Under the pieces are notes generated by a model that was not told where the DNA came from, made no database searches, and saw nothing but the letters and a program-made list of their open reading frames with translations. From Thermoproteota archaeon (GTDB lineage: Archaea; Korarchaeota; Korarchaeia; Korarchaeales; Korarchaeaceae): 64,000 nt of DNA. Below are positions 36,190 through 48,464 of the stretch, one piece after another. The stretch spans positions 19,523 through 83,522 of the forward strand of contig JAOZGP010000004.1 in the NCBI GenBank assembly GCA_027491735.1. The letters run 5' to 3'. Position 1 is the stretch's first letter; every line of letters begins with the position of its first letter. The translations under genes and the position numbers were made by a program.

Positions 36190-36378
36190 TTGTGTGAGGG
36201 CATCGCATACCTGCTCAGAGAGGATAACAAAGAAAGGCTGATGGATGAGGTCGCCTATCTTGAGGTTAAGGAAGACGAACTTATTCTTATAAACGAGGAT
36301 GGTATCAGGAGAGTTTTAGACAGGTTCAAGGAGATCAGGGTCGACATGATCAAGCATGAGATCATCGTAGTTCCCTGA
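36190..36378 (+). CDS. cooT: CooT-family nickel-binding CODH accessory protein
   Basis: A TTG start gives MCEGIAYL..LMDEV..VDMIKHEII, with the Cys2 and C-terminal His pattern of CooT. Confidence 0.8.
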   Translation: MCEGIAYLLREDNKERLMDEVAYLEVKEDELILINEDGIRRVLDRFKEIRVDMIKHEIIVVP

Positions 36379-36787: not shown

Positions 36788-37192
36788 TTGATGCCGTTCC
36801 GTCCGGTCCACGGGAAGATACTCGATGTCCTGGCAGCCCACCCACAGGGGCTGTGCTTCAACAGCCTCAGCCAGAAACTTAAGGGGGTAATCTCAAGAGT
36901 TGTCCTGCTCAAGGAGGTCAAGAGACTTGAGGACGCTGGTGTCATCGTTGTGGAGAGGGATCCAGGTCATAAGCAGAGGAAGATATTCAAGCTTGCATCA
37001 TCGGTGAGAGATCTACTGTTATTTTTGGGTGAGGAGATCAGGTCTGGCGAGAGAAAAGCCTGTGATATAGCTGTTGATCTGATAAACAGGTACGCCAGCA
37101 TCAAGAGCGGTTTGAGGAACGAGTTCCTCAAGGAATATCTAAAGTACTCTGTCCTGACGAGAATTGAGGTTCTGATGGAGGAGGTGGCTTAG
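36788..37192 (+). CDS. winged-helix transcription regulator (HxlR/ArsR-like)
   Basis: LCFNSL..ISRVVL..VKRLEDAGVI..HKQRKIFKL pattern. Confidence 0.75.
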   Translation: MMPFRPVHGKILDVLAAHPQGLCFNSLSQKLKGVISRVVLLKEVKRLEDAGVIVVERDPGHKQRKIFKLASSVRDLLLFLGEEIRSGERKACDIAVDLINRYASIKSGLRNEFLKEYLKYSVLTRIEVLMEEVA

Positions 37193-37453
37193 ATGTCGTC
37201 GGAGGTCTCCGTCGTGGTGGAGAGGGTAGACGATCAGGTGTTGGAGAAGCTCATTGGGTTAGCCATGTCCAGCCGGAGAATCAACATATACCTCAATGGA
37301 ATTCCCTCTGAGATCATCAAGGCCCTCAGATCGGTGATAACCTCCAATACATCAAGATCAATCAGGTTATACTGCTCAATCCCAGAGGATCCTCCTGGAG
37401 AGGTGATAAGGTTTCCTCCAGTGAGCCGGCAGGGAGAACGTTGCGAAGCATGA
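37193..37453 (+). CDS. small hypothetical protein
   Basis: 86-aa ORF with a ribosome site, in operon between the regulator and the Grs homolog. Confidence 0.65.
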   Translation: MSSEVSVVVERVDDQVLEKLIGLAMSSRRINIYLNGIPSEIIKALRSVITSNTSRSIRLYCSIPEDPPGEVIRFPPVSRQGERCEA

Positions 37454-37465
37454 GGAGGTGATGTC

Positions 37466-38968
37466 ATGCATGACGTGGTTCTCTCAGCAGACAGGACGAT
37501 GATGTCGAACCATCATGGGAAGGAGTTCCTCGGCTTCGTCGCAACAGGCCCCCCAGTGGGGATTCCGGAGTTCCTTTGGATGTGGGTAGCCGCTCCGAAG
37601 ATGAAGGTCGATGATGAGGGAAGGGTTTGGCAGGCTCCTTACGGGATCAGGAAAATAGAGGCCGCCCTGTCGGACGCCGGTTTCGACGTCGCCACAATAG
37701 ATCCGGATCATCTCCACAAGCACATACCAGGGGCGAAGGTTCTGGCGATAGGGCATCATGACTACTTCTCCCTCGGTCCCCCAAGCAGTGAGTGGTGGGT
37801 GTTGACCAGGAAGGAACCGGTGAACAGGAAGAGCTTCATCAAGTTCATGGAGAAGCCCGAGATAAGGAAGGGGAAGGAAAAAGGAATGAAGATAATAGTT
37901 GGAGGACCTGCAGCTTGGCAGTGGATCTGGGCTCCTGAGTACATAGACAGGTGGGGGATCGACTGTATAGTGGATGGGGAGGCCGATAAGGTTATAGTTG
38001 ATCTCGTTGAGAAGGCCATGAACGACAAAGATCTCCCCCTTTACGTTCAGGTCGGTGTTGATGAGGTCCCCTCACTTGAGGAGATTCCTCTGATAAAGCA
38101 CGCATCCGTAAATGGGCTTGTGGAGATAATGAGGGGATGCCCAAGGGGGTGTAAGTTCTGCTCGGTGACGCTCAGGCCTCTCAGATGCTACACGCTCGAC
38201 ATGATTGAGGAGGAGTTAAAGGTTAACGCCAGAGAGGGAGTCAAGGGATGCATCCTGCACTCAGAGGACGTCCTGCTCTATGGAGCAGATGGTGTGAAGC
38301 CGAGACCTGGACCCCTCCTTAAGCTCCACAGACTCGCCAAGAAGTACTCAAATCAGGTGGGGTGGAGTCACTTCAGCCTCGCGGCAGTCAAGTACGCTGA
38401 GGACAACTACGGACTGGTGAGCAGGCTTTCTGAGATGCTCAGGGAGGATCAGGATGACTTCATAGGGGTCGAGGTTGGAGTGGAAACTGGATCTCCAAGG
38501 CTCGCCAGGAGGATAATGCCTGCGAAGTCCCTTCCGTATCCAGCGGACCTATGGCCGGAGGTTGTCGTTGACGCCTTCGCCATAATGCACGATGCTCACG
38601 TGATACCGGCGGCAACCCTGATAATAGGCCTCCCGGAGGAGACTCCTGATGATATAATAAAGACCATAGAACTCGTTGAGGACCTTAAGGAATTTAGAAG
38701 TCTTATAGTTCCCATGTACTTCGTTCCTATGGGTGCTCTTAGGGGTAGGGACTGGTACAAGGTCCAACCGACAGATGAGCAGATGGATCTCATGAAGATC
38801 TGTCTCAGCCACGACCTATATTGGGTGGAGGGCATGATCGAGTGGTACTTCAGAAACTCAAATCCGCTCCTTAGGAAGGCGGTTAGGATGTTCATATCGT
38901 TCGTGAAGAAGGTTGCTAGATCGCATGGAATAGCTTTTGAGGAGGATATCAGAGTTGCTGTCAAGTGA
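37466..38968 (+). CDS. grs: GDGT ring synthase homolog (GrsA/B family radical SAM)
   Basis: ADRTMMSNHHGKEFLGF, APYGIRKIEAAL and EIMRGCPRGCKFC motifs, as in Sulfolobales GrsA/B. Confidence 0.82.
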   Translation: MHDVVLSADRTMMSNHHGKEFLGFVATGPPVGIPEFLWMWVAAPKMKVDDEGRVWQAPYGIRKIEAALSDAGFDVATIDPDHLHKHIPGAKVLAIGHHDYFSLGPPSSEWWVLTRKEPVNRKSFIKFMEKPEIRKGKEKGMKIIVGGPAAWQWIWAPEYIDRWGIDCIVDGEADKVIVDLVEKAMNDKDLPLYVQVGVDEVPSLEEIPLIKHASVNGLVEIMRGCPRGCKFCSVTLRPLRCYTLDMIEEELKVNAREGVKGCILHSEDVLLYGADGVKPRPGPLLKLHRLAKKYSNQVGWSHFSLAAVKYAEDNYGLVSRLSEMLREDQDDFIGVEVGVETGSPRLARRIMPAKSLPYPADLWPEVVVDAFAIMHDAHVIPAATLIIGLPEETPDDIIKTIELVEDLKEFRSLIVPMYFVPMGALRGRDWYKVQPTDEQMDLMKICLSHDLYWVEGMIEWYFRNSNPLLRKAVRMFISFVKKVARSHGIAFEEDIRVAVK

Positions 38969-39259: not shown

Positions 39260-40021
39260 TTAGAGAAGGTTTCTGGGTACTGGTGTGAAGTGCTCTTCGA
39301 GGCCGAGATCTTTAAATGGAGATCCCATGGCCCTAGCGATGAGTTGGGTGAAGTGGAGGATTGGAAGAGATCCTCCTCCATAGAAGTCGAGCATAAAGTG
39401 GCATAGATTACACATCGTGACGATGGCATCAGCTCCTGCCTCCTTAGCTGATTCCACCACGGATCTGGCCATCTCAACAGCAACATTGGGTTTCCTGAGG
39501 GTTAGAGGTCCCCCGCAGCACTTGAGCCTCATAGAAAAATCTACAGGTTTGGCTCCTATAGCTTCCATCAGATCCTCAAGCATGTGCGGATCTTCTGGAT
39601 CATCTATGGCGAGATCTCTCGGCCTGAGGGCTTGACATCCGTAATAGGTGGCTACCTTCAAGTCAAGGCTCCTCACTACCCTCTTCCTCAGCTCCTCAAC
39701 GCCCACTTCATCGTGCAGGAACTTGACGAGGTGATCTATTGAGCCCCCTCCTCTGTTTATGTTGCTGTAACATCCACTACACCCAGTTATCAGTCTCTTC
39801 TGACCGGCTTCCCTCATTATTATGTCCGTGAGTCCTCTCACTATGTTCACATCTACGAGTTCGGCTTCAAGGGTGCCGCAGCAGGGGGCCCTGTCCAGGA
39901 TCACAGGTTCAAAACCCAGCTTCCTAAGGACAGAGATCGCCGTCCTGAGGTAAGCCTTCTCGGTTGTCTTAGCGGAGCAGCCAGGATAATAGGCCACAAC
40001 CCCAGTGGTCTCATCTGACAA
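39260..40021 (-). CDS. hdrB: heterodisulfide reductase subunit B
   Basis: Two CCG domains: YYPGC..CCG..CSGC and YYGC..CCGG..CNLC. Confidence 0.92.
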   Translation of the reverse strand: MSDETTGVVAYYPGCSAKTTEKAYLRTAISVLRKLGFEPVILDRAPCCGTLEAELVDVNIVRGLTDIIMREAGQKRLITGCSGCYSNINRGGGSIDHLVKFLHDEVGVEELRKRVVRSLDLKVATYYGCQALRPRDLAIDDPEDPHMLEDLMEAIGAKPVDFSMRLKCCGGPLTLRKPNVAVEMARSVVESAKEAGADAIVTMCNLCHFMLDFYGGGSLPILHFTQLIARAMGSPFKDLGLEEHFTPVPRNLL

Positions 40022-40493
40022 TCCTCCTCACCTCCCTCCTGATCTCTTCGGGAACTCCTCCTCCCTCCTTCAGTATCCCGGCCAACTTTACTCCCTTGAA
40101 CCCAGCCATCTTAAGCGATCCGAGAACCCCGATCGAAGAGATTGCGACCTTAGCTGGGTTTATGAACGCTCTCCTTCTAAGCTCGTCCATGAAGGCCTTC
40201 TCGATTCTCCCAACCCCATACTTCCTGACTCTCATGTTCGACAGGGCCGTAGCTATGTCCGGGAAGCTGAGGCCCTGAGGACACCTCACCGTACAGAGGT
40301 AGCAGTGGAGGCAGGGCTCGTAAAGCCTCTTGTCCACCACCTCGTCCATTCCCATCTGTACCATGTGCACCAGCTTGTTTGGCCTGAAATCGTCTACTCC
40401 GACGACTTGGCATGATGAAGCGCACTCGCCGCACTGGAAACACTTGTAGACATCCTGGCCGGATATCTTGAGAACTTCATTGGCAAGGATCAT
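40011..40493 (-). CDS. hdrC: heterodisulfide reductase subunit C
   Basis: CFQCGECASSC and CLHCYLCTVRCPQG motifs. Confidence 0.9.
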   Translation of the reverse strand: MILANEVLKISGQDVYKCFQCGECASSCQVVGVDDFRPNKLVHMVQMGMDEVVDKRLYEPCLHCYLCTVRCPQGLSFPDIATALSNMRVRKYGVGRIEKAFMDELRRRAFINPAKVAISSIGVLGSLKMAGFKGVKLAGILKEGGGVPEEIRREVRRIVR

Positions 40494-41374
40494 CCTCTCA
40501 CCCTGCCCATTGAGATCGCCCTAGCGGATAGCTTCTCCTTGCAATCTGGGCATATTTTCTGGGAGTTTGCTCTTTCTATTTCCTTTGATGTGGCAAAAGG
40601 TCTGCCGCAAAGTTCGCATCTGACCAGCTTCATCTCAGGACCCTTCGACCACTCTTCCAAGAGCTGCTTGACCGTCATTCCTCCCAGCTTCAGGGCCTCA
40701 ACCTTGTTCTCCTTGCAGACATCGACACACTTCCCACAACCAACACATTTCGAGGCGCTCAGATAGATAATTCGGAGGTCCTTCGAGTCCTCGAACCTAA
40801 GAGCCCCTTCAGGACATGCCTCGGCACATGCACCACACCCAATGCACTCCTCCGAGAAGAGCGGTATCTCGAACCCGGGCACAGGCACTAGCCTGACTTC
40901 CTTCACCATCTTAGCTATGGACCTAAGGGATTCCGCGAAGTTCTCCTTCTTCTTCGGCACCCTCAGTACAGGTTTTCTGTCAAGCGGAGGAAGCCTGTTC
41001 AACCTGGAGGACATCTCTTCTGCTGCAGCAACAAACTTATGCGGTTCGGAAGCTGCCATGAAGAACATCTCGACCCTGTCCGGCTCGACCCCAATCGCGT
41101 CCAGAAGCTGCTTGAGGAACTCAACCCTCTCCTCTGCTTTGAGGTTTCCGTCCACATAATGACATTCTCCCTTTCTGCAACCAGCTACAAAGACAGCATC
41201 AGCTCCTTTGGCCAGCGCATAGAGGATCCACGCCGGATCAACGGTCCCCGAACAGGGAATCCTTACTATCAGGACGTTAGCTGGATGCTTCCTATGAGTG
41301 CTGCCGGCCAGGTCGGCGGCAGCATAGGCGCACTCATTACAGCAGAAACCAACCACAAGCCTCTCATCAGCCAC
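40490..41374 (-). CDS. mvhD: MvhD [2Fe-2S] subunit fused to a 2x[4Fe-4S] ferredoxin and CxxC..CxxC tail
   Basis: FCCNECAYAAADLAG, IPCSG and GCRKGECHY..GN, followed by CIGCGACAEACP, CVGCGKCVDVC and CELC..CPDC. Confidence 0.88.
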   Translation of the reverse strand: MADERLVVGFCCNECAYAAADLAGSTHRKHPANVLIVRIPCSGTVDPAWILYALAKGADAVFVAGCRKGECHYVDGNLKAEERVEFLKQLLDAIGVEPDRVEMFFMAASEPHKFVAAAEEMSSRLNRLPPLDRKPVLRVPKKKENFAESLRSIAKMVKEVRLVPVPGFEIPLFSEECIGCGACAEACPEGALRFEDSKDLRIIYLSASKCVGCGKCVDVCKENKVEALKLGGMTVKQLLEEWSKGPEMKLVRCELCGRPFATSKEIERANSQKICPDCKEKLSARAISMGRVRG

Positions 41375-43337
41375 TCAACACACCCCCTAGCAGACCCTCT
41401 ATCTGATTGAATATCTGATCCTCCGTGTACACCTTCCTGCTTATGGCCCCAACTGGACAGACTGCCTGGCATATACCACACCCCGCACAGGCAGCTGGCA
41501 ATATCTTGGCCTTTCCGTTCTCCTCAACTATAGCATTGAAGGGACACTGATCCTTGCAGGCCATGCATCCAATGCAGAGTTCCTCATCCACGAAGGCTTT
41601 TTCACCACTGATCTTGATCTTCCCCTTCATCAGGATTGTGGCCGCCTCGCTTGCAGCAGCCTTGGCCTGTGCAACGGAGTCGGGTATGTCCTTAGGTCCT
41701 TGAGCAGCTCCACATATGAAGATCCCGGGGACTGACGTCTGGACTGGTTTGAGCTTCGCATGGAGCTCCTGGAGGAAGCCATAGGGGTCCTTTGGTATGT
41801 TGAACACCTCCCTTATGGTCTTAGTCCCTTCAGAGGGGGACACACCAGCAGCTAGGACCACTAGATCGGCCTTTATCTCCAGCTTCCTGCTAAGAGTCTG
41901 ATCGAACACTTCGACCGCCAGGTGATCTCCCTCCCTTCTCACCTCTCCAGGCTTTCCTCTGATGAACATCACTCCCTCCTCCCTCACTCTGGAGTATAGC
42001 TCCTCAAACCCCTTCTTTGGGGTTCTCATATCTATGTAACATATGTACACCTTGGTATCGGGGTACTCGGATCTTATTATCTCCGCATGTTTTAATGATA
42101 TCATGCAGCAGACATTCGAGCAGTAGGGGTTGTTGTTCACATCCCTGCTCCCTGCACACTGTATGAAAACGACGCTTCTTGGAATTTTTCCATCGGAGGG
42201 CCTCTTTAGGTGTCCTGAAGTCGGTCCGTTGACGTTTATCAGAGATTCTAGCTGAAGCTGTGTTATAACATCAGCGTACTTCCCATATCCATAGTTCTTT
42301 AAATTTGATGCATTGTACTCGTCAATCCCCGTGGCTATCACGACCGCACCCACCCTGAGCTCAAACTCCTCCGGATTCTCGTTCAGGTTTATCGCCTCGA
42401 CGGGGCATCTCCTGGCACATTCGCCACACTTCCCACTTTTTATGTATAGGCAGGATTCCGGATCTATCACATAGGCCCTCGGAGCCGCCTGAGGAAAGGG
42501 TATATAGGCAGCCTTCCTCCTACCCAATCCCATCTGCCACTCGTTGATAGTTTCCACCGGACACACCCTCTCGCAGGTGGCGCAGGATATGCACTTCTCC
42601 GGATCCACATATCTCGGTTTCTTCCTGACTTTCAATGTGAAGTTTCCTATGGACCCTGACGCCTCAACAACCTCGCTCATCGTGTGGACCTCTATCAACG
42701 GATGGTCCAGAACCTCAGCCATCAGAGGAGTTAGTATGCAGAGGGAGCAGTCCCCTGTTGGGAAGACCCTATCAAAGAGAGCCATCTTTCCCCCGAGGGT
42801 TGGGTTTTTCTCTAGAAGATGGACCTTTATCCCCTTGTTGGCCAGATCCAGGGCAGCTGTTATCCCAGCTATACCCCCTCCGATGACCGCAGCCTCGTTC
42901 ACCACTTCGGCCTCGCTCTCATATATGGGTTCGGCAGCGGCAACCTTATGAACTCCCGCTAGCACGTACCTTATCGCCTTGTTCGTCGCCTCCTCCGGAT
43001 TCTCAGTTGACCAGGAGACCTGTTCCCTCAGGTTTACCTGCTCCATATATCCCGGATTGAGCCCTGCCTCAGCTACAACCCTCCTAAAGAGGCCTTCATG
43101 GAGCTTGGGGCTACATGCAGCCACAACAACTCTGTTTATCTTTCCACTCTTTATGTCCTTCCTTATGAGCTCCTGTCCCATCTTGCTACACATGAAAAAG
43201 TAATCCCTGGATATCGCCACTAAGGGATTCTTCGCCACCTCCTTGGCGACCTTCTTGACGTCAACCTTCCCAGCTATGTTCTTGCCACAGTGGCAGACGT
43301 ATACACCAACCCTTATATCATCCGACGTATAGATCAC
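41367..43337 (-). CDS. hdrA: heterodisulfide reductase subunit A (FAD/FeS)
   Basis: GVYVCHCG, AACSP, IGGGIAG, DCSLCIL, QCAGSRD, YCSNVCC and GPKDIP motifs, plus a C-terminal ferredoxin. Confidence 0.95.
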   Translation of the reverse strand: MIYTSDDIRVGVYVCHCGKNIAGKVDVKKVAKEVAKNPLVAISRDYFFMCSKMGQELIRKDIKSGKINRVVVAACSPKLHEGLFRRVVAEAGLNPGYMEQVNLREQVSWSTENPEEATNKAIRYVLAGVHKVAAAEPIYESEAEVVNEAAVIGGGIAGITAALDLANKGIKVHLLEKNPTLGGKMALFDRVFPTGDCSLCILTPLMAEVLDHPLIEVHTMSEVVEASGSIGNFTLKVRKKPRYVDPEKCISCATCERVCPVETINEWQMGLGRRKAAYIPFPQAAPRAYVIDPESCLYIKSGKCGECARRCPVEAINLNENPEEFELRVGAVVIATGIDEYNASNLKNYGYGKYADVITQLQLESLINVNGPTSGHLKRPSDGKIPRSVVFIQCAGSRDVNNNPYCSNVCCMISLKHAEIIRSEYPDTKVYICYIDMRTPKKGFEELYSRVREEGVMFIRGKPGEVRREGDHLAVEVFDQTLSRKLEIKADLVVLAAGVSPSEGTKTIREVFNIPKDPYGFLQELHAKLKPVQTSVPGIFICGAAQGPKDIPDSVAQAKAAASEAATILMKGKIKISGEKAFVDEELCIGCMACKDQCPFNAIVEENGKAKILPAACAGCGICQAVCPVGAISRKVYTEDQIFNQIEGLLGGVLSG

Positions 43338-44146
43338 CTCCTCAGAAAATAGCTAAAAATCTCAGAAAAAGCTTCGTTCATGGCGATAACACCAGGGGAG
43401 TTTTCGGGGTATATATCGACTCCTCTCCCCTCCATCTCGCTCAAGAAGAAGCTATCGTCGTAGGGGATGAAGAACGCCCCAACATCCCTCTTGCCGCACT
43501 CATCGAGCACCTTCCTTCTGATCATCCCAAGCTTATCGGGAGGAACCTTGTTCACAAGAAGATCTATCCTCTCTATGCCCAGGTTTTTCCCCATCTCTAT
43601 CAGCCTAAACGAGATGTCGAGGGACTTCACTGTTGGTTCCGAGACACAGATCATGTGATCGAAGTTCTCAGCTAGACCCCTTCCAAAGACCTCTGCTCCG
43701 GCCTCCGAGTCCACCACAACGGCTTCCCTCTCATCCATCATGACGTGTTTGAGGAAGGCTCTCGCCAAAGCTATTGCTGGACAGAGACATCCCTCTTTAG
43801 CCGCGTCTATGCTGCCAACAACGACCAGTCTTAGGTTGTCCCTCACCCTAAGGCCGAACTTCTCTATTATGTCATCCACCTGAGGATTGAGTCTGAAGAA
43901 GATTCCCCACGCCTCTCCAGGCTTTGCTCCAGTTCGTTTAGCGATGAACTCATTGTTCTTGGTAAGAGGAATTATCTTGAGGGCTTTATCTCTCGGCACA
44001 CCAAGGGCTTGGGCCAGATTAGGGACTGAATCTGTGTCAAGAGCTAAAACCTTGAGACCTCTTAAGCTCAAGAAAAAAGAGAGGAGAGCAGATGTGGTAG
44101 TCTTCCCTGTCCCTCCCTTTCCAGCCACGAGCACCTTTAACGGCAC
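43334..44146 (-). CDS. cooC: CODH nickel-insertion ATPase
   Basis: GKGGTGKTT, GCLCP and DSEAGAEVFGRG motifs; adjacent to cooS. Confidence 0.93.
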   Translation of the reverse strand: MPLKVLVAGKGGTGKTTTSALLSFFLSLRGLKVLALDTDSVPNLAQALGVPRDKALKIIPLTKNNEFIAKRTGAKPGEAWGIFFRLNPQVDDIIEKFGLRVRDNLRLVVVGSIDAAKEGCLCPAIALARAFLKHVMMDEREAVVVDSEAGAEVFGRGLAENFDHMICVSEPTVKSLDISFRLIEMGKNLGIERIDLLVNKVPPDKLGMIRRKVLDECGKRDVGAFFIPYDDSFFLSEMEGRGVDIYPENSPGVIAMNEAFSEIFSYFLRR

Positions 44147-44152
44147 CTATAC

Positions 44153-46081
44153 TCACTCCGGCCATCCGAGCTTCTTCCTCTTCTCCTTTATCACTTGGAT
44201 CATCGTCTGAGCCGCCTTTATCGGATCGGGTTCGACGTAGAACTTTCCTCCTACCAGGTCCTCAGCCTTATCGGTCAGGATCTCGACTACCCCCTTGCTG
44301 CCCAAGACAGGAGGCACCGTTCCTAGGTGTGTAAACACGCCAGAGGAGACGAAGTAGGTTCCTATGGAGACAGCCTTCTCGCTCATCCACTCCGGAGCAG
44401 AGCCCACAGCAGGAAGGTCTGATATATCCACGCCCAGGTGGTCCGCCAGTGCCGCCAGAGCTATCAACATTCTGGAGCAGTCAACGCAGCTTCCCATATG
44501 AAGGGCAGGCGGTATTCCCAGGGATTTACATATCTCCTTCAGTCCGGGACCCGCTAGTTCAGCTGCCTCTGGTTTGAAGAGCCCGTGCTTCGACATGGCG
44601 ATGGCCCAGCATCCGGTTCCGACGACTAAGATGTCGTTCTTTATCAGCTCCTTCGTCAGGGTCACATGGCTGTAATCGTGCCTGACTTTGGGGTTCACGC
44701 AGCCCACTATCCCAGCCACTCCCTTTATCTTTCCTGACTTGAGAGCCTCAGCCAATGGATCCAAGGTTCCTCCAAGGGCCTCCAATATCGCCTCCACGCT
44801 GAAACCAGCGACAAGCTCCATTTTCTCCTTGGGTATGAAAACCCTCTCCTTGACCCTGTTGGGGAAGTTCTCCACAGCAACCCTAACTATCTTCTTAGCT
44901 GTCTCCAACGCGTTCTCTTTGTCGAACTCTATGTGTATAGCTCCTGGCATGTGAGCCTTCGGCTCAGTGGTTATCACCTTGGTGTGGTAGCAGGACGCCA
45001 CGTTAGCTATCGCTGGCATTATGCACTGGTAGTCCACTATGACCGCCTCCACAGCACCTGTTATTATGGCGAGCTCCTGCTGTAACATGTTCCCGGCTAT
45101 AGGTATTCCATACCTCATCAGGACCTCGTTGCCGGTACAGCACATCCCAACAACGTTTATCCCTCCAGAAGCTCCGGCCTTCTTCGCCAGCTCGAGAAGT
45201 TCCGGATCCCTTGCAGCTTCGACCACCTTGGAGGAGAGTATGGGGTTGTGGCCGTGGACAACTATGTTTACAGCATCCTCTCTGAGAACTCCCAGGTTCG
45301 CAATGCTCTTGACGGGTTTTGGTGTGCCGAGAAGTATATCGCTCAGCAGGGTGGCCATGAGAGATCCTCCCCACCCATCTCCTAGGGAGGCCCTTATTCC
45401 CTGAGCTATCAGGCTCAACGGATCCGCGTCGACACCCATATGAGTTCTGTGCATTATCTCGACAACCTCCCTGTCTATAGCTCTGGGCATGACTCCTACC
45501 TTCTCCCAGATCTTTCTTCTCTTCTCCGGAGCGTACCCCTCAACCAGTTTGAGGGGTTCCTCGCCGGGCTTCCCGAACTCCATCAGAAGGACCTCAGCAA
45601 CCTCCTTAGCTACATCGTTCAGCTCTTTTCCTTCAACGTCAACGCCCAGCCTCTTGGCTAGATCCATCAACTTGGCCTCATCGGTTATCTTGTAATCCTT
45701 AGCCCTTCCCTCAGGTATTGCCGCCAGAACTTCAGCTATATCCCTTGCATGATCGCTGTGAGCCGCAGCTCCAGCAGCTATCATCCTGATAAGGTTCCTG
45801 GCAACTATAGTGTCAGCGGTAGCTCCACAGACGCCCTTTTGCGGACCATATCCGAAGGGATCTATCCTGCATGGACCCATGTTGCAGTTCCTGCAGCACA
45901 CCCCTAGCTGGCCGAAACCGCATTGAGGTTGTTGCGCTAAGAACCTATGCCATGCGGTCTCCACTCCGTCCTTCTCTGCCTTCTCGAGAAGCTGCTCAAC
46001 TGTTGAATCCATGGACACGCTCCTATAGAACTCCTTCCGGGAGGCTTTCATAAGCCTCTCATAAATTCTCTCCTCAGGCAT
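44153..46081 (-). CDS. cooS: anaerobic Ni-Fe carbon monoxide dehydrogenase catalytic subunit
   Basis: QPQCGFG..CCRNCNMGPC, AAHSDH, HGHNP, GMCCTGNE, DYQC, GCVN, GSCVD and EWMSEKA motifs. Confidence 0.97.
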   Translation of the reverse strand: MPEERIYERLMKASRKEFYRSVSMDSTVEQLLEKAEKDGVETAWHRFLAQQPQCGFGQLGVCCRNCNMGPCRIDPFGYGPQKGVCGATADTIVARNLIRMIAAGAAAHSDHARDIAEVLAAIPEGRAKDYKITDEAKLMDLAKRLGVDVEGKELNDVAKEVAEVLLMEFGKPGEEPLKLVEGYAPEKRRKIWEKVGVMPRAIDREVVEIMHRTHMGVDADPLSLIAQGIRASLGDGWGGSLMATLLSDILLGTPKPVKSIANLGVLREDAVNIVVHGHNPILSSKVVEAARDPELLELAKKAGASGGINVVGMCCTGNEVLMRYGIPIAGNMLQQELAIITGAVEAVIVDYQCIMPAIANVASCYHTKVITTEPKAHMPGAIHIEFDKENALETAKKIVRVAVENFPNRVKERVFIPKEKMELVAGFSVEAILEALGGTLDPLAEALKSGKIKGVAGIVGCVNPKVRHDYSHVTLTKELIKNDILVVGTGCWAIAMSKHGLFKPEAAELAGPGLKEICKSLGIPPALHMGSCVDCSRMLIALAALADHLGVDISDLPAVGSAPEWMSEKAVSIGTYFVSSGVFTHLGTVPPVLGSKGVVEILTDKAEDLVGGKFYVEPDPIKAAQTMIQVIKEKRKKLGWPE

Positions 46082-46696
46082 CTACACCCACCACCCCACA
46101 GGTTTGTACATCTCCTTAACTTTAGAAATCGGGGATTCTGGAGCCTCCTTTTCAATCCTCGCATAGACCACTCCAGCCTCCTGTACTCCCAGTATCATCT
46201 CCAAGGCTTTCTTTCTCTTCTCTTCATAGAGAAGGTCCTCCGCTCTACCAAACCTAAGGGCGCCCGTTGGACATGCCTCCACGCATGCCGGAGGAAGCCC
46301 CCTTCTCATCCTCTCAATGCAGTGATCGCACTTGATTACTTTAAGCGTGGAGTCATAGGAGGGATGGCCGAAGGGACACGCCAGGAGACATGTCCTGCAT
46401 CCTATGCACTTCTCCCTGTCTGCGACAACGAAGCCTTCCTCGGTCCTATGCATGGCTCCTGTAGGACAAGCCTGCTCACATGGAGCGGGATCGCAATGCA
46501 TGCACCTCATGGGAACGAGGAGTCTGTCAGCCACAACAACTCTGGTTCTTGGGCGAGGAAGAGGTTCTTCAAAGATTGCTCCAAACAGGTCACGGGAGTC
46601 GGAGTGTTCAACAGCGCAGGCTATTTCACAGCTTCTACATCCGACGCATTTAGAGGGGTCCACGTATATCAGGTACTCGGGCTGAGTTAAAGTCAC
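46082..46696 (-). CDS. cooF: CooF-type 4x[4Fe-4S] electron transfer protein
   Basis: CVGCRSCEIAC, CMHCDPAPC, CIGCRTCLLACP and KCDHC..PACVEACP motifs. Confidence 0.9.
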   Translation of the reverse strand: MTLTQPEYLIYVDPSKCVGCRSCEIACAVEHSDSRDLFGAIFEEPLPRPRTRVVVADRLLVPMRCMHCDPAPCEQACPTGAMHRTEEGFVVADREKCIGCRTCLLACPFGHPSYDSTLKVIKCDHCIERMRRGLPPACVEACPTGALRFGRAEDLLYEEKRKKALEMILGVQEAGVVYARIEKEAPESPISKVKEMYKPVGWWV

Positions 46697-46734
46697 AGCT
46701 CCCAGATCTCTTCACCCCAAAAAATTCTCACCGT

Positions 46735-47913
46735 TTACGTATAATTATTTCGTTTTTCAACGAAAGAAGGAATTGAAGTCCCGTTTTTCTTCTGGGAAAT
46801 TTTTAAATTTTTACTTAAAATCGATGATTTAGCAATTTTATATCTCTTTATAAGCTCCAAACACTCAGGAGTTGGGGTGCATCCTCCCCTGTCTGAACCA
46901 CCTTTCCTGGACATGAATAGGTTAATCCCCAAAATCTTTTCAATAGATCTTACTCTCTTGTATATCGAGGCTGGTGATGTGTTAAGAGCTCTAGCAAGTC
47001 TGCTAAAGCTTCCTAGATCAGCTAATGCCGATAAAATTTCCAGATCATCCTCGTATATGCGTCTGCCGTCCTTGGTCACGAGGACCAAGGAGGCTGAGAA
47101 GGAGTACTTCGTTGATCGACTTATCTTGCTGCAGTTCAGCCGCACGATGCCTGCTATCTCGAGGGGTGAGTAGAGCATGTTGAGGGTTCCCTCCACAGGG
47201 CATTTCCCTACATATCCCGCCGAGTCCAGGAACACCATGCCGCAGTTCAACTTACAGTAGGGGCCGTCCAGGACATATATTGGAAAATCTCTTCTGAAAG
47301 TGACCCGAACCATGTAGACGTCCATGAACTTTCTGAATGGCTCAGAGACCTCAAACCCCTGTCTCTCCATGATGGCCACAGCGCTAGTGGAGCAGACCGT
47401 TGGAGGACAGAATATGGGCGGGGAGATCCACATCTGAACCCCCTTCTCCCTGATTAGATCTATACAGGTGAGAAGTTCCCTCTCATTTGTGTTTTGAGTG
47501 ATAAACAGGGCTACTTTTACGTTTGCTCCTCTGGAGAGAAGGTATCTCATCATCTTCCTTGCCCCGGAGATGTCCGAGTGTGTGTAAGAAAAGAGAAAAA
47601 TCTCATCCGGTATGAGCAGGCTTCTCCATCCTTCCTCCTCGGAGCCGGTTGAGGATGGAGTGAATACCCTGAGAGGGAGTCTTCTCTCCTTAACAGACAT
47701 CATAAGATCCGTAACACCTGGATGGAGGAGCGGGTCCGGACATATGAAGCAAACCTCCGGTCTGTACCCGGAGCCTATCATGGCGTCCAACACGAGCTCG
47801 AGCTTATCTTTCTTGAGGTATGTGCGCTCTCCAGACTTGGTTTCTCTCCACGGGCACTGGGAGCAGGACGCATCGCACCCCCTCACAGGTCGAACTATGA
47901 GTACGGGCTTCAT
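46735..47913 (-). CDS. corR: CorR-like regulator: radical-SAM-like FeS domain plus C-terminal LysR/ModE-type HTH
   Basis: CDASCSQC motif; C-terminal GSFSRLARALNTS..YKRVRSIEKILG..KGG..RGG; sits directly upstream of cooF. Confidence 0.7.
   Translation of the reverse strand: MKPVLIVRPVRGCDASCSQCPWRETKSGERTYLKKDKLELVLDAMIGSGYRPEVCFICPDPLLHPGVTDLMMSVKERRLPLRVFTPSSTGSEEEGWRSLLIPDEIFLFSYTHSDISGARKMMRYLLSRGANVKVALFITQNTNERELLTCIDLIREKGVQMWISPPIFCPPTVCSTSAVAIMERQGFEVSEPFRKFMDVYMVRVTFRRDFPIYVLDGPYCKLNCGMVFLDSAGYVGKCPVEGTLNMLYSPLEIAGIVRLNCSKISRSTKYSFSASLVLVTKDGRRIYEDDLEILSALADLGSFSRLARALNTSPASIYKRVRSIEKILGINLFMSRKGGSDRGGCTPTPECLELIKRYKIAKSSILSKNLKISQKKNGTSIPSFVEKRNNYT
46748..46765. promoter_or_regulatory. 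inverted repeat at the BRE/TATA of the cooF promoter
   Basis: tttcgtt-tttc-aacgaaa immediately upstream of TAATTATA on the minus strand. Confidence 0.5.
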
Positions 47914-48464
47914 GGAATCGCCTCCATCACCTCGGCCCTGAACTCACATAGGCCATCGCCAGCTGCCTGACAGCTCACCTCCTCCATGGGTCCTATTCTC
48001 ACCCTGAGTATATCCTCGACCAGTGCTGCCAAGATGCCGGCCACGAACCTGCAGACCGGCTCCTTGGACTTCCTTCTCCTGGCCTCAAAGGAGTTGGAGA
48101 CGGAGATCCTAACGAAGTTGTCCTCAATTTCTATCTTCTCTATCCTGCCGAACCCCAAGGTCTCAAATATGGATGCAGCTATCCCGAAGAGCTCGTCCTT
48201 CTCGAATCTCTCTCTCATGGGAACTATTCCCTTCTCGTTGTGGGCCTTCATGAGCCTGTAGGCTGAGTAGTATAGGACAGGGCCTATGGCCTTACTGCCA
48301 GCCACAACCGAGATTCCAGCCATGAAGTCGGCCCACCACTTGGTGGACATGATGAACACGTCCGGCAGAATTGCCCTGCCGAAAAGGGGTATATCAACCT
48401 CGACCCTTATACTTCCCTGATCGTTCTGGATCTTCCTGATGTTCTTCATCATCGGTAAAATCAA
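47910..48464 (-). CDS. corQ: V4R-domain protein, CorQ-like
   Basis: LGFG, NSFEA, PVCRFVAGIL and EVSCQAAGDGLCEF motifs; ATGA-coupled to the corR-like gene. Confidence 0.75.
   Translation of the reverse strand: MILPMMKNIRKIQNDQGSIRVEVDIPLFGRAILPDVFIMSTKWWADFMAGISVVAGSKAIGPVLYYSAYRLMKAHNEKGIVPMRERFEKDELFGIAASIFETLGFGRIEKIEIEDNFVRISVSNSFEARRRKSKEPVCRFVAGILAALVEDILRVRIGPMEEVSCQAAGDGLCEFRAEVMEAIP

Follow-up and report, generated by a model that had tools for sequence, protein, structure and literature searches.

A korarchaeal CO dehydrogenase operon with HdrABC and an MvhD–HycF-like fusion: a candidate CO-driven Hdr complex

Introduction

What supplies electrons to a heterodisulfide reductase (Hdr) complex in archaea outside the methanogens? 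HdrABC/MvhD have been described as conserved in the class Korarchaeia, mostly without MvhA or Mcr, and this has been called puzzling (Vulcano et al. 2023; PMC10667645). The question takes concrete form in a 64,000-nt window of contig JAOZGP010000004.1 (positions 19,523 to 83,522) from a Thermoproteota archaeon of this class, where nine genes, corQ-corR-cooF-cooS-cooC-hdrA-mvhD(fusion)-hdrC-hdrB, occupy 39260..48464 and bring a carbon monoxide (CO) dehydrogenase (CODH) together with HdrABC and MvhD. Coordinates are those of the window unless preceded by a label; G, L and C labels denote genomes, loci and contigs, with G000 the host genome of the window.

The donors listed for flavin-based bifurcation and Hdr in the available text of three sources are H2, formate, F420H2 and NAD(P)H (PMC5861303, PMC12054007, PMC12350162). 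CO delivered by a dedicated CODH would be a new input, and the operon offers a concrete donor for the korarchaeal HdrABC/MvhD that lack MvhA or Mcr. We consider it likely that CO electrons enter the Hdr complex, with or without bifurcation, and, with less assurance, probable that they are bifurcated there. The new part is the mvhD gene fused to a HycF-like half; the gene order itself has already been tabulated for Candidatus Korarchaeum cryptofilum.

Results and discussion

Operon layout and the CO dehydrogenase module

The nine open reading frames (ORFs) are intact and all lie on the minus strand within 39260-48464. Read from corQ to hdrB, the intergenic distances are -4, 38, 0, 6, -4, -8, -4 and -11 bp, so that every gap from cooF to hdrB is 6 bp or less. 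In the same order the gene families are V4R, LysR-type HTH, Fer4_11, Prismane, CbiA-type ATPase, HdrA, FlpD plus Fer4, Fer4_17 and CCG, and all nine gene names are backed by Pfam and NCBIfam. A preliminary description of this DNA had reported this order on one strand, genes from cooF to hdrB that overlap or abut within 6 bp, and the absence of hydrogenase, Fdh or Ech/Mch genes. Each of these points holds: the ORFs carry the expected cofactor ligands, the measured distances agree and no such gene is found among the nine. Its gene list was correct for the operon itself, but overlooked a cooT gene at 36190-36378 (plus strand) and the HycF nature of the fusion.

Compared with a same-genus genome, eight of the genes gave ratios of nonsynonymous to synonymous substitution rates (dN/dS) of 0.025-0.088 and are, by this measure, under purifying selection; for mvhD, dS was saturated and the proportion of nonsynonymous differences (pN) was 0.115. 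A scan for sigma-70 promoters and terminators remained at shuffle level (8 vs 7.5 and 10 vs 7.6, respectively), sigma-70 models being unsuited to archaea.

The product of cooS (44153..46081) scored 786.6 bits against TIGR01702 (cut-off 478), and the D-, B- and C-cluster ligand and catalytic His/Lys motifs were all found (11/11). By these motifs CooS is a monofunctional Ni-CODH, with CO oxidation as the predicted reaction. Immediately before it, cooF (46082..46696) encodes a four-cluster [4Fe-4S] electron-transfer subunit of the HycB/DmsB type (PF13247, E 4e-23; four cluster motifs), in which 16 cysteines are invariant across 13 of 13 aligned sequences. The NCBIfam match list for CooF includes HydN, and we take CooF to be a HycB-type four-cluster protein. 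The nickel-insertion ATPase gene cooC (43334..44146; PF01656) follows cooS, as it does directly in relatives, where the proteins are 50-87% identical.

The MvhD-HycF fusion as connector

Between hdrA and hdrC, mvhD (40490..41374) encodes a fusion protein. Residues 1-131 correspond to the MvhD [2Fe-2S] domain, with the MvhD cysteines present, and the C-terminal half contains two [4Fe-4S] motifs and a CxxC-x18-CxxC tail (C253, C256, C275, C278) of the Cys4 single-metal type, a cysteine pattern that is invariant in 15 of 15 aligned sequences. Sequence comparison matched this half to HycF (7z0s_F, E 3.8e-10), and the structure model of the fusion (predicted local distance difference test score 93) retrieved both MvhD (5odc_D, E 2e-14) and HycF (7z0s_F, E 3.7e-8) in Foldseek; on sequence and modelled fold, the C-terminal half is HycF-like. 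Apart from other fusions, its best matches in the sequences compared belong to CO-linked hydrogenases. In the fetched loci, 14 coo-linked hydrogenase clusters supplied the top matches through their Fe-S subunits (E 9e-21 to 2e-12), and when all 43 genomes of the phylum were compared, only one protein that is not a fusion reached E <= 1e-14, the corresponding subunit in G034, which hhalign paired with the fusion domain at 99.8%.

In E. coli formate hydrogenlyase, electrons follow the path FdhF-HycB-HycF-HycG, and a C-terminal extension of HycF bearing a Cys quartet contacts HycB (PMC9474812). MvhD, in turn, links Hdr to its donor in all solved Hdr complexes, namely those with Mvh, Fdh and Elp (PMC12350162). 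With a HycF-like half on the CooF side and an MvhD half on the HdrA flavin side, the gene therefore joins the expected electron receiver to the expected electron giver, and, by analogy with HycB-HycF, we infer that CooF docks on the HycF-like domain. Another donor appears grafted onto MvhD in protein P0161, where, read by eye, an MvhD N-terminus is fused via two Fe-S motifs to an [FeFe]-hydrogenase-like domain.

Conservation and gene order in relatives

Among 40 genomes of the class, cooS was present in 20 and the full-length fusion in 13 (hereafter carriers), all of them within those 20. The survey of cooS-hdr synteny proposed in the preliminary description recovered the nine genes in order on one contig in 9/40 class genomes; because the order recurs in this way the operon is not a chance arrangement, though related genomes within the class are not independent. 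A further genome carries cooS to hdrB on a contig whose first gene is a truncated cooS, and in three others the cluster is broken up by contig ends. Duplicates were counted once, covering loci on the same contigs as class genomes and L142-L144, which are near-identical to class members. The cooS loci on genome contigs were the best 80 of 552 and the metagenome mvhD loci the best 80 of 542, so the values given for them are counts, not frequencies.

Outside the class, and within the best 80 of 552 cooS loci, an Archaeoglobales locus (L018) reads hdrA-hdrC-hdrB-mvhD(fusion)-corQ-corR-cooF-cooS-cooC, and a Hydrothermarchaeota locus (L013) has the same order from hdrB onward. The HdrB of this rearranged version is divergent (about 27% identical). 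As these loci hold the same parts in another order, the CODH-Hdr linkage survives rearrangement. Both outside carriers had a dsrA match above the cut-off and no mcrA (0/2); the dsrA match of the Hydrothermarchaeota carrier (G041:C81:4524-5657) contains two in-frame TGA stops. Within the best 80 of 542 metagenome mvhD loci the fusion occurred in five, four with cooS upstream and the fifth starting inside mvhD, whereas the flanking DNA retrieved for the other 75, from under 1 to 9 kb, contained no cooS.

Seven further genomes of the class have cooS but not the full-length fusion. In G034, a member of the same genus that encodes mcrA and dsrA, a group 4 membrane hydrogenase rather than Hdr comes after cooFSC (L099:7692-19980), with no corQR match upstream. 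Since cooFSC within one genus leads either to a membrane hydrogenase or to Hdr through the same domain family, redox-module rewiring is evident. In G023 and G025, cooF-cooS precedes a flavoprotein gene, in G009 a 1.8-kb contig carries cooS-cooC-hdrA, in G007 and G001 the contigs are short, and in G002 cooF-cooS lies beside a divergent hdrB-like gene. At L010:3161-7615, cooF-cooS is accompanied by a divergently transcribed, extended cooF-like gene and then an hdrB-like gene with a different pocket, on a contig without hdrA or mvhD.

Acetyl-CoA synthase beta was found in none of the 13 carriers (8/40 class genomes have it), and a role of the operon in the Wood-Ljungdahl pathway was rejected on this ground. 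A complex-I-type 49-kDa subunit, a possible ferredoxin sink, was present in 12/13 carriers. At the MvhA-type hydrogenase loci of G011 (L135:4486-11896) and G029 (L136:6829-14183), one run contains qmoC-like, hdrA, hdrA, mvhD, mvhG and mvhA genes, so that the partner of the Mvh hydrogenase there is a Qmo-like membrane module and not HdrBC.

HdrABC and the electron acceptor

Full-length, single-FAD (flavin adenine dinucleotide) HdrA is encoded at 41367..43337 (E 1e-193 to 8rvu_a; E 3e-192 to 5odc_A) and aligns over its whole length with solved methanogen HdrA (8rvu_a), including the FAD motif and the N-terminal, inserted and C-terminal Fe-S domains. Two methanogen HdrA residues tied to bifurcation, E356 and K409 (PMC12054007), have equivalents in E364 and K416 (HdrA and HdrB numbering transferred by motif spacing), which are conserved in 13/13 orthologues; these residues are compatible with flavin-based electron bifurcation. 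The hdrC gene (40011..40493) encodes a protein with two [4Fe-4S] clusters by its Fer4_17 family match and cluster motifs.

The last gene, hdrB (39260..40021; PF02754), is the only HdrB match in the G000 genome. Its product retains both CCG domains, every one of their ten cysteines and an HdrB fold (model vs 5odc_B, TM score 0.86), but the spacing between the domains is 45 residues vs 72 in methanogen HdrB (27 shorter) and the substrate pocket is altered. Contacts to coenzymes M and B (CoM/CoB) in 5ODR are Gly46, Gly198, Arg14, Arg201, Arg240 and Phe233 (PMC13261682). In 12/12 class sequences Arg14 is replaced by Thr, Gly46 by Glu, Phe233 by Leu, Arg240 by Phe or Tyr and the glycine loop by GP, while Arg201 is, by spacing, retained as Arg or Lys. 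The change at Arg240 is not diagnostic, as M. marburgensis HdrB has Val at this position. Judged by these residues, HdrB has lost most CoM/CoB contacts.

The preliminary description had also advised a search for mcr and CoM biosynthesis genes. For mcrA the outcome was uniform, with 0/13 class carriers and 0/2 outside carriers, whereas comA was present in 2/5 carriers tested, but not in G000. CoM-S-S-CoB is therefore judged unlikely as the acceptor, given the absence of mcrA, the presence of comA in only two of the five carriers tested and the mostly changed HdrB contacts. Our guess, which within the favoured model we would place somewhat short of an even chance, is that the enzyme reduces a persulfide or polysulfide in the cytoplasm, or a disulfide bound to a protein there.

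Host genome context

The G000 genome measures 1.36 Mb and is 88% complete. At this completeness it yielded no match to mcrA, acetyl-CoA synthase beta or comA, and the absence of methanogenesis genes noted earlier for the window extends, for mcrA, to the rest of the assembly. There was likewise no Mo/W-bisPGD (PF00384) enzyme and no tblastn match to MvhG. The sole [NiFe] large subunit lies on contig C3 in a membrane-type uptake hydrogenase cluster, whose other members are a small subunit with a Tat signal and proteins of the HybA and NrfD types (read by eye). No group 4 [NiFe] hydrogenase or membrane subunits occur at the locus, and the only PF00346 match in the genome, which lacks the nickel CxxC pairs (by eye), is a complex-I-like subunit from a complex-I-like cluster without nickel ligands.

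G000 also has dsrAB, dsrC and dsrMK. In one stretch (G000:C23:19065-27676), where no dsrJOP was seen, dsrC is followed by genes for Rieske and cytochrome b proteins, then by dsrM and dsrK, and finally by a small ORF rich in Cys and by dsrAB. A second, Qmo-like hdrA-hdrA cluster (G000:C3:3147-8871) comprises, by eye, DsrE-like, MvhD-like, two HdrA, small HTH-like and QmoC-like membrane proteins, and faces a thioredoxin reductase and a TauE-like exporter on the opposite side. ARAGORN reported a 94-nt tRNA with anticodon TTA at G000:C22:11363-11456, probably a misread intron-containing tRNA, as introns were not enabled.

Proposed mechanism and energetics

We propose that CooS, CooF and CooC, HdrABC and the MvhD-HycF fusion would form one soluble enzyme, in which electrons would pass from CooS to CooF, the HycF-like domain, MvhD and the HdrA flavin. 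The flavin would send part of them to ferredoxin and the rest to a sulfur-sulfur bond that is not the one in CoM-S-S-CoB, reduced ferredoxin could be reoxidised by the complex-I-like membrane enzyme, and CO would presumably induce the operon via CorQR. In its anatomy the operon appears purpose-built and, by its sequence features, would work like Mvh-Hdr with a CODH donor arm. The idea that CooS/CooF replaces the hydrogenase, first raised in the preliminary description, has strong indirect support from conserved synteny, rearranged recurrence, the HycF-like domain and the lack of mcrA, acetyl-CoA synthase and MvhAG in G000, and we continue to infer it on that basis. With no acetyl-CoA synthase beta in the 13 carriers, CO has no use as a product; this, and the CO-responsive activation reported for CorQR in Thermococcus, make CO oxidation the likely direction.

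The standard potential (E0') of the CO2/CO couple is -520 mV, and from this value the computed potential at 80 °C is -415 mV at a pCO2/pCO of 1e3 and -380 mV at 1e4. The potential given for H2 is -414 mV (PMC5861303). Trace CO would thus behave like H2 (about -400 mV), and only bifurcation would then yield low-potential ferredoxin. A bolder version, to which we give slightly less than even weight, is that this would be the first CO-driven flavin-bifurcating enzyme, in which a CO module has moved from a membrane hydrogenase to soluble Hdr via a HycF-type dock grafted on MvhD, allowing hot-spring and vent archaea to turn trace CO into low-potential ferredoxin and to reduce a new, non-methanogenic sulfur acceptor.

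Several observations weigh against a dedicated, bifurcating CO-Hdr complex. In G019 (98% complete) the orthologous hdrB lies at the edge of a contig, and the genome gave no match to cooS; L146:138-5849, one of the five metagenome loci with the fusion, reads corQ-corR-cooF-cooS-cooC-fusion with no hdrA between, on a contig that ends inside the fusion; and outside the class the fusion is rare (1/96 and 1/38 genomes of Archaeoglobales and Hydrothermarchaeota, respectively). The full fusion architecture was detected by pattern in 26/266 retrieved proteins. A 45-row tree of the HycF-like domain, whose loci were selected around cooS so that it is not read for the direction of transfer, has other proteins within the fork that unites the fusion clades (87/99) and fits one origin as well as several. 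The HycF-like architecture is also not exclusive to CODH, as a 541-aa relative precedes a molybdoenzyme/NrfD operon in G008; because that operon brings a CooF-type subunit of its own, the domain may dock such subunits in general. In this locus (L246:4959-10680) the 541-aa polyferredoxin is directly upstream of the molybdoenzyme, a four-cluster CooF-type subunit, an NrfD protein and a TorD-like chaperone, and similar matches occur in G005 and G006. Finally, no candidate acceptor gene is conserved beside the operon in the loci compared, an MvhA-type hydrogenase is also present in 3/13 carriers (G011, G012, G029), and at high CO bifurcation is not needed, as CooS/CooF can reduce ferredoxin directly.

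The last of these points leads to a plain CO:disulfide oxidoreductase, a complex with CO as donor that does not bifurcate in vivo and removes CO by sending all electrons to the sulfur acceptor. CO at standard conditions is reducing enough for this, the first Glu of the methanogen HdrA motif GLELERM is Q or G in all 13 orthologues, and the operon has no ferredoxin gene; however, HdrA keeps its E356/K409 equivalents and its inserted ferredoxin domain under purifying selection and 12/13 carriers have the complex-I-like ferredoxin sink, so that we regard this version as unlikely. Slightly less likely again is co-regulation without docking, where CooFS would reduce free ferredoxin and Hdr would use that ferredoxin or a hydrogenase encoded elsewhere. 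Methanosarcina HdrA2B2C2 does work with soluble carriers (PMC5861303), and the MvhA-type hydrogenases just mentioned could serve, but the two MvhA-type loci inspected carry their own mvhD and hdrA genes. Moreover, five carriers (G000, G005, G006, G021, G033) yielded only a 592-606 aa type of [NiFe] large subunit, which in G000 belongs to the Tat/NrfD membrane cluster, and the fusion adds a HycF-like domain that is absent from plain MvhD and tracks with cooS.

A third route would end in DsrC, with CO electrons feeding sulfite respiration. A DsrC route has been proposed for Hdr-Flx and Hdr-Mvh in sulfate reducers, G000 has dsrAB, dsrC and dsrMK, both outside-class carriers have a dsrA match over the cut-off (that of G041 with the two TGA stops), and the shorter HdrB could open the site to a protein substrate. 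However, dsrA occurs in only 2/13 class carriers, so DsrC is not the general acceptor; Dsr is limited to one genus of the class, as is also described in PMC10667645. The check for dsrC advised earlier was positive for G000 but negative for all five near-complete carriers tested, and dsr-free carriers have the same HdrB pocket residues as G000. DsrC is thus possible as an acceptor only in dsr-bearing genomes, and we judge this route improbable. Least plausible of all is the reverse direction, in which CooFS would draw on the low-potential output of Hdr and convert CO2 to CO, like Fmd in methanogen supercomplexes. Ni-CODH is reversible and Hdr-Fmd complexes show that CO2 can be reduced at the output end (PMC12350162), but none of the 13 carriers has acetyl-CoA synthase, the extra domain sits on MvhD, through which electrons enter, CO-responsive activation is reported for CorQR (PMC4791640) and the operon has no other donor. 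On balance, we favour a complex in which CO electrons enter Hdr through the fusion and are bifurcated.

Regulators and neighbouring genes

A V4R protein and a LysR-type HTH protein encoded directly upstream of cooF match the CorQR gene arrangement; we call the V4R protein CorQ and the HTH protein CorR, following the preliminary description. The CorQ sensor (47910..48464; PF02830, E 1.3e-12) has orthologues 48-87% identical that align from residue 3-9, and its true start is probably ATG 48452 or 48449, the former with a TATA-like stretch about 26-30 nt upstream (by eye). CorR (46735..47913) combines an N-terminal radical-SAM-like CxxxCxxC motif (PF04055, E 0.0012, weak and below the cut-off) with a C-terminal LysR/ModE-type HTH (PF00126, E 4e-10), and is 21-28% identical to regulators in Thermococci and Desulfurococcales coo loci. 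The motif, at residues 13-20, recurs in 26/35 N-terminally complete homologues, Thermococci loci included, and could hold a site-differentiated [4Fe-4S] cluster that acts as the gas or redox sensor of CorQR.

CorQR has been reported as a CO-responsive activator of the CODH cluster, for T. onnurineus only in the available text of PMC4791640 and PMC6557876, the latter using the two names the other way round. Over the 3' end of corR and the 38-bp gap (46697..46800, minus strand), an AT-rich stretch upstream of cooF shares an AAAWCGRA-like word in 9/9 aligned class genomes (by eye); it fits a regulated promoter and is a candidate for CorQR control of cooF to hdrB.

The nickel chaperone gene cooT (36190..36378, plus strand; PF10133 above cut-off) is displaced from the operon, 2.9 kb beyond hdrB on the opposite strand, and its product is 34% identical to that of an ORF directly behind hdrB in G031. 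Three plus-strand genes lie between cooT and hdrB (36788-38968), encoding an HTH-like protein of 134 aa, a protein of 86 aa with no assigned family and a radical SAM protein of 500 aa; G033 has a different gene at this position.

Significance

CO-driven bifurcation, if true, would explain why HdrABC-MvhD is retained in Korarchaeia without MvhA or Mcr, and would open CO respiration to lineages so far taken for peptide fermenters. As the predicted soluble enzyme is encoded in one 9-kb block, it is an amenable system in which to look for what a non-methanogenic HdrB reduces.

Comparison with known systems

Parts of this arrangement have been recorded before. In Supplementary Table 2 of Inoue 2019 (PMC6344411), one row, Ca. 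Korarchaeum cryptofilum KCR_RS03930-03970, has the same nine-gene order, with COGs for V4R, a ModE-type regulator, CooF, clade E-1 CooS, CooC, HdrA, an unassigned gene, HdrC and HdrB, the fusion gene being the one without a COG. Of the 36 CODH contexts with HdrB (COG2048) in that table, 34 contain acetyl-CoA synthase beta and are Wood-Ljungdahl clusters, and the other non-ACS (acetyl-CoA synthase) row is an hdrC-hdrB-cooS run in Ca. Methanoplasma termitum. The main text groups Hdr-like COGs with the Wood-Ljungdahl pathway and, in its available part, proposes no CODH-Hdr complex. Similarly, 'hdr' and 'Mvh' do not occur in the available main text of a 2026 CODH context survey (PMC13056359), nor 'CODH' in that of a 2025 HdrA survey of methane-metabolising archaea (PMC12054007); the corresponding text of a Hydrothermarchaeota paper mentions cooS and hdr separately (PMC6775978), and no such cluster appears in that of PMC13079737 or PMC10469681. 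A literature search of titles and abstract starts retrieved no description of a CooS-CooF-HdrABC complex and no discussion of the tabulated K. cryptofilum gene order.

Acetogen hdrCBA-mvhD-metVF in CODH/ACS clusters (Moorella, Sporomusa, Carboxydothermus) also unites cooS-type and hdr genes, whereas the CODH of the operon is monofunctional, comes with CooF and has no ACS beside it. With E. coli HycB-HycF (7z0s, 7z0t) the fusion shares two [4Fe-4S] motifs followed by a CxxC...CxxC tail, beside a four-cluster HycB/CooF-type gene, but MvhD replaces the N-terminal membrane-associated extension of HycF, the upstream enzyme is CODH and the downstream one Hdr.

The front half, corQ-corR-cooF-cooS-cooC, is that of CorQR-CooF-CooS-CooC-Mch in Thermococcus onnurineus and of the 14 coo-hydrogenase loci, which contain CooS relatives 68-73% identical to the operon CooS and a HycF-like Fe-S subunit. 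Unlike these clusters, the operon has no membrane hydrogenase or antiporter, and its HycF-like unit is part of the MvhD protein, with genes for soluble HdrC and HdrB behind it; the predicted products are therefore a reduced sulfur compound and ferredoxin, not H2. Conversely, the rear half resembles methanogen MvhAGD-HdrABC, FdhAB-MvhD-HdrABC and ElpABC-HdrABC (5odc, 7bkb, 8rvu) in its full-length HdrA with E356/K409 equivalents, HdrC, two-CCG HdrB fold and MvhD [2Fe-2S] connector, but here the donor module is a Ni-CODH, with no MvhAG, FdhAB or ElpAB in the operon, MvhD has an extra HycF-like domain and the carriers are without mcrA. Its HdrB, without Arg14, Gly46, Phe233, Arg240 and the glycine-rich loop and 27 residues shorter between domains, differs from that of methanogens as well. 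The operon is a member neither of the methanogen CoM-S-S-CoB reductases nor of the Coo/Mch hydrogenase systems.

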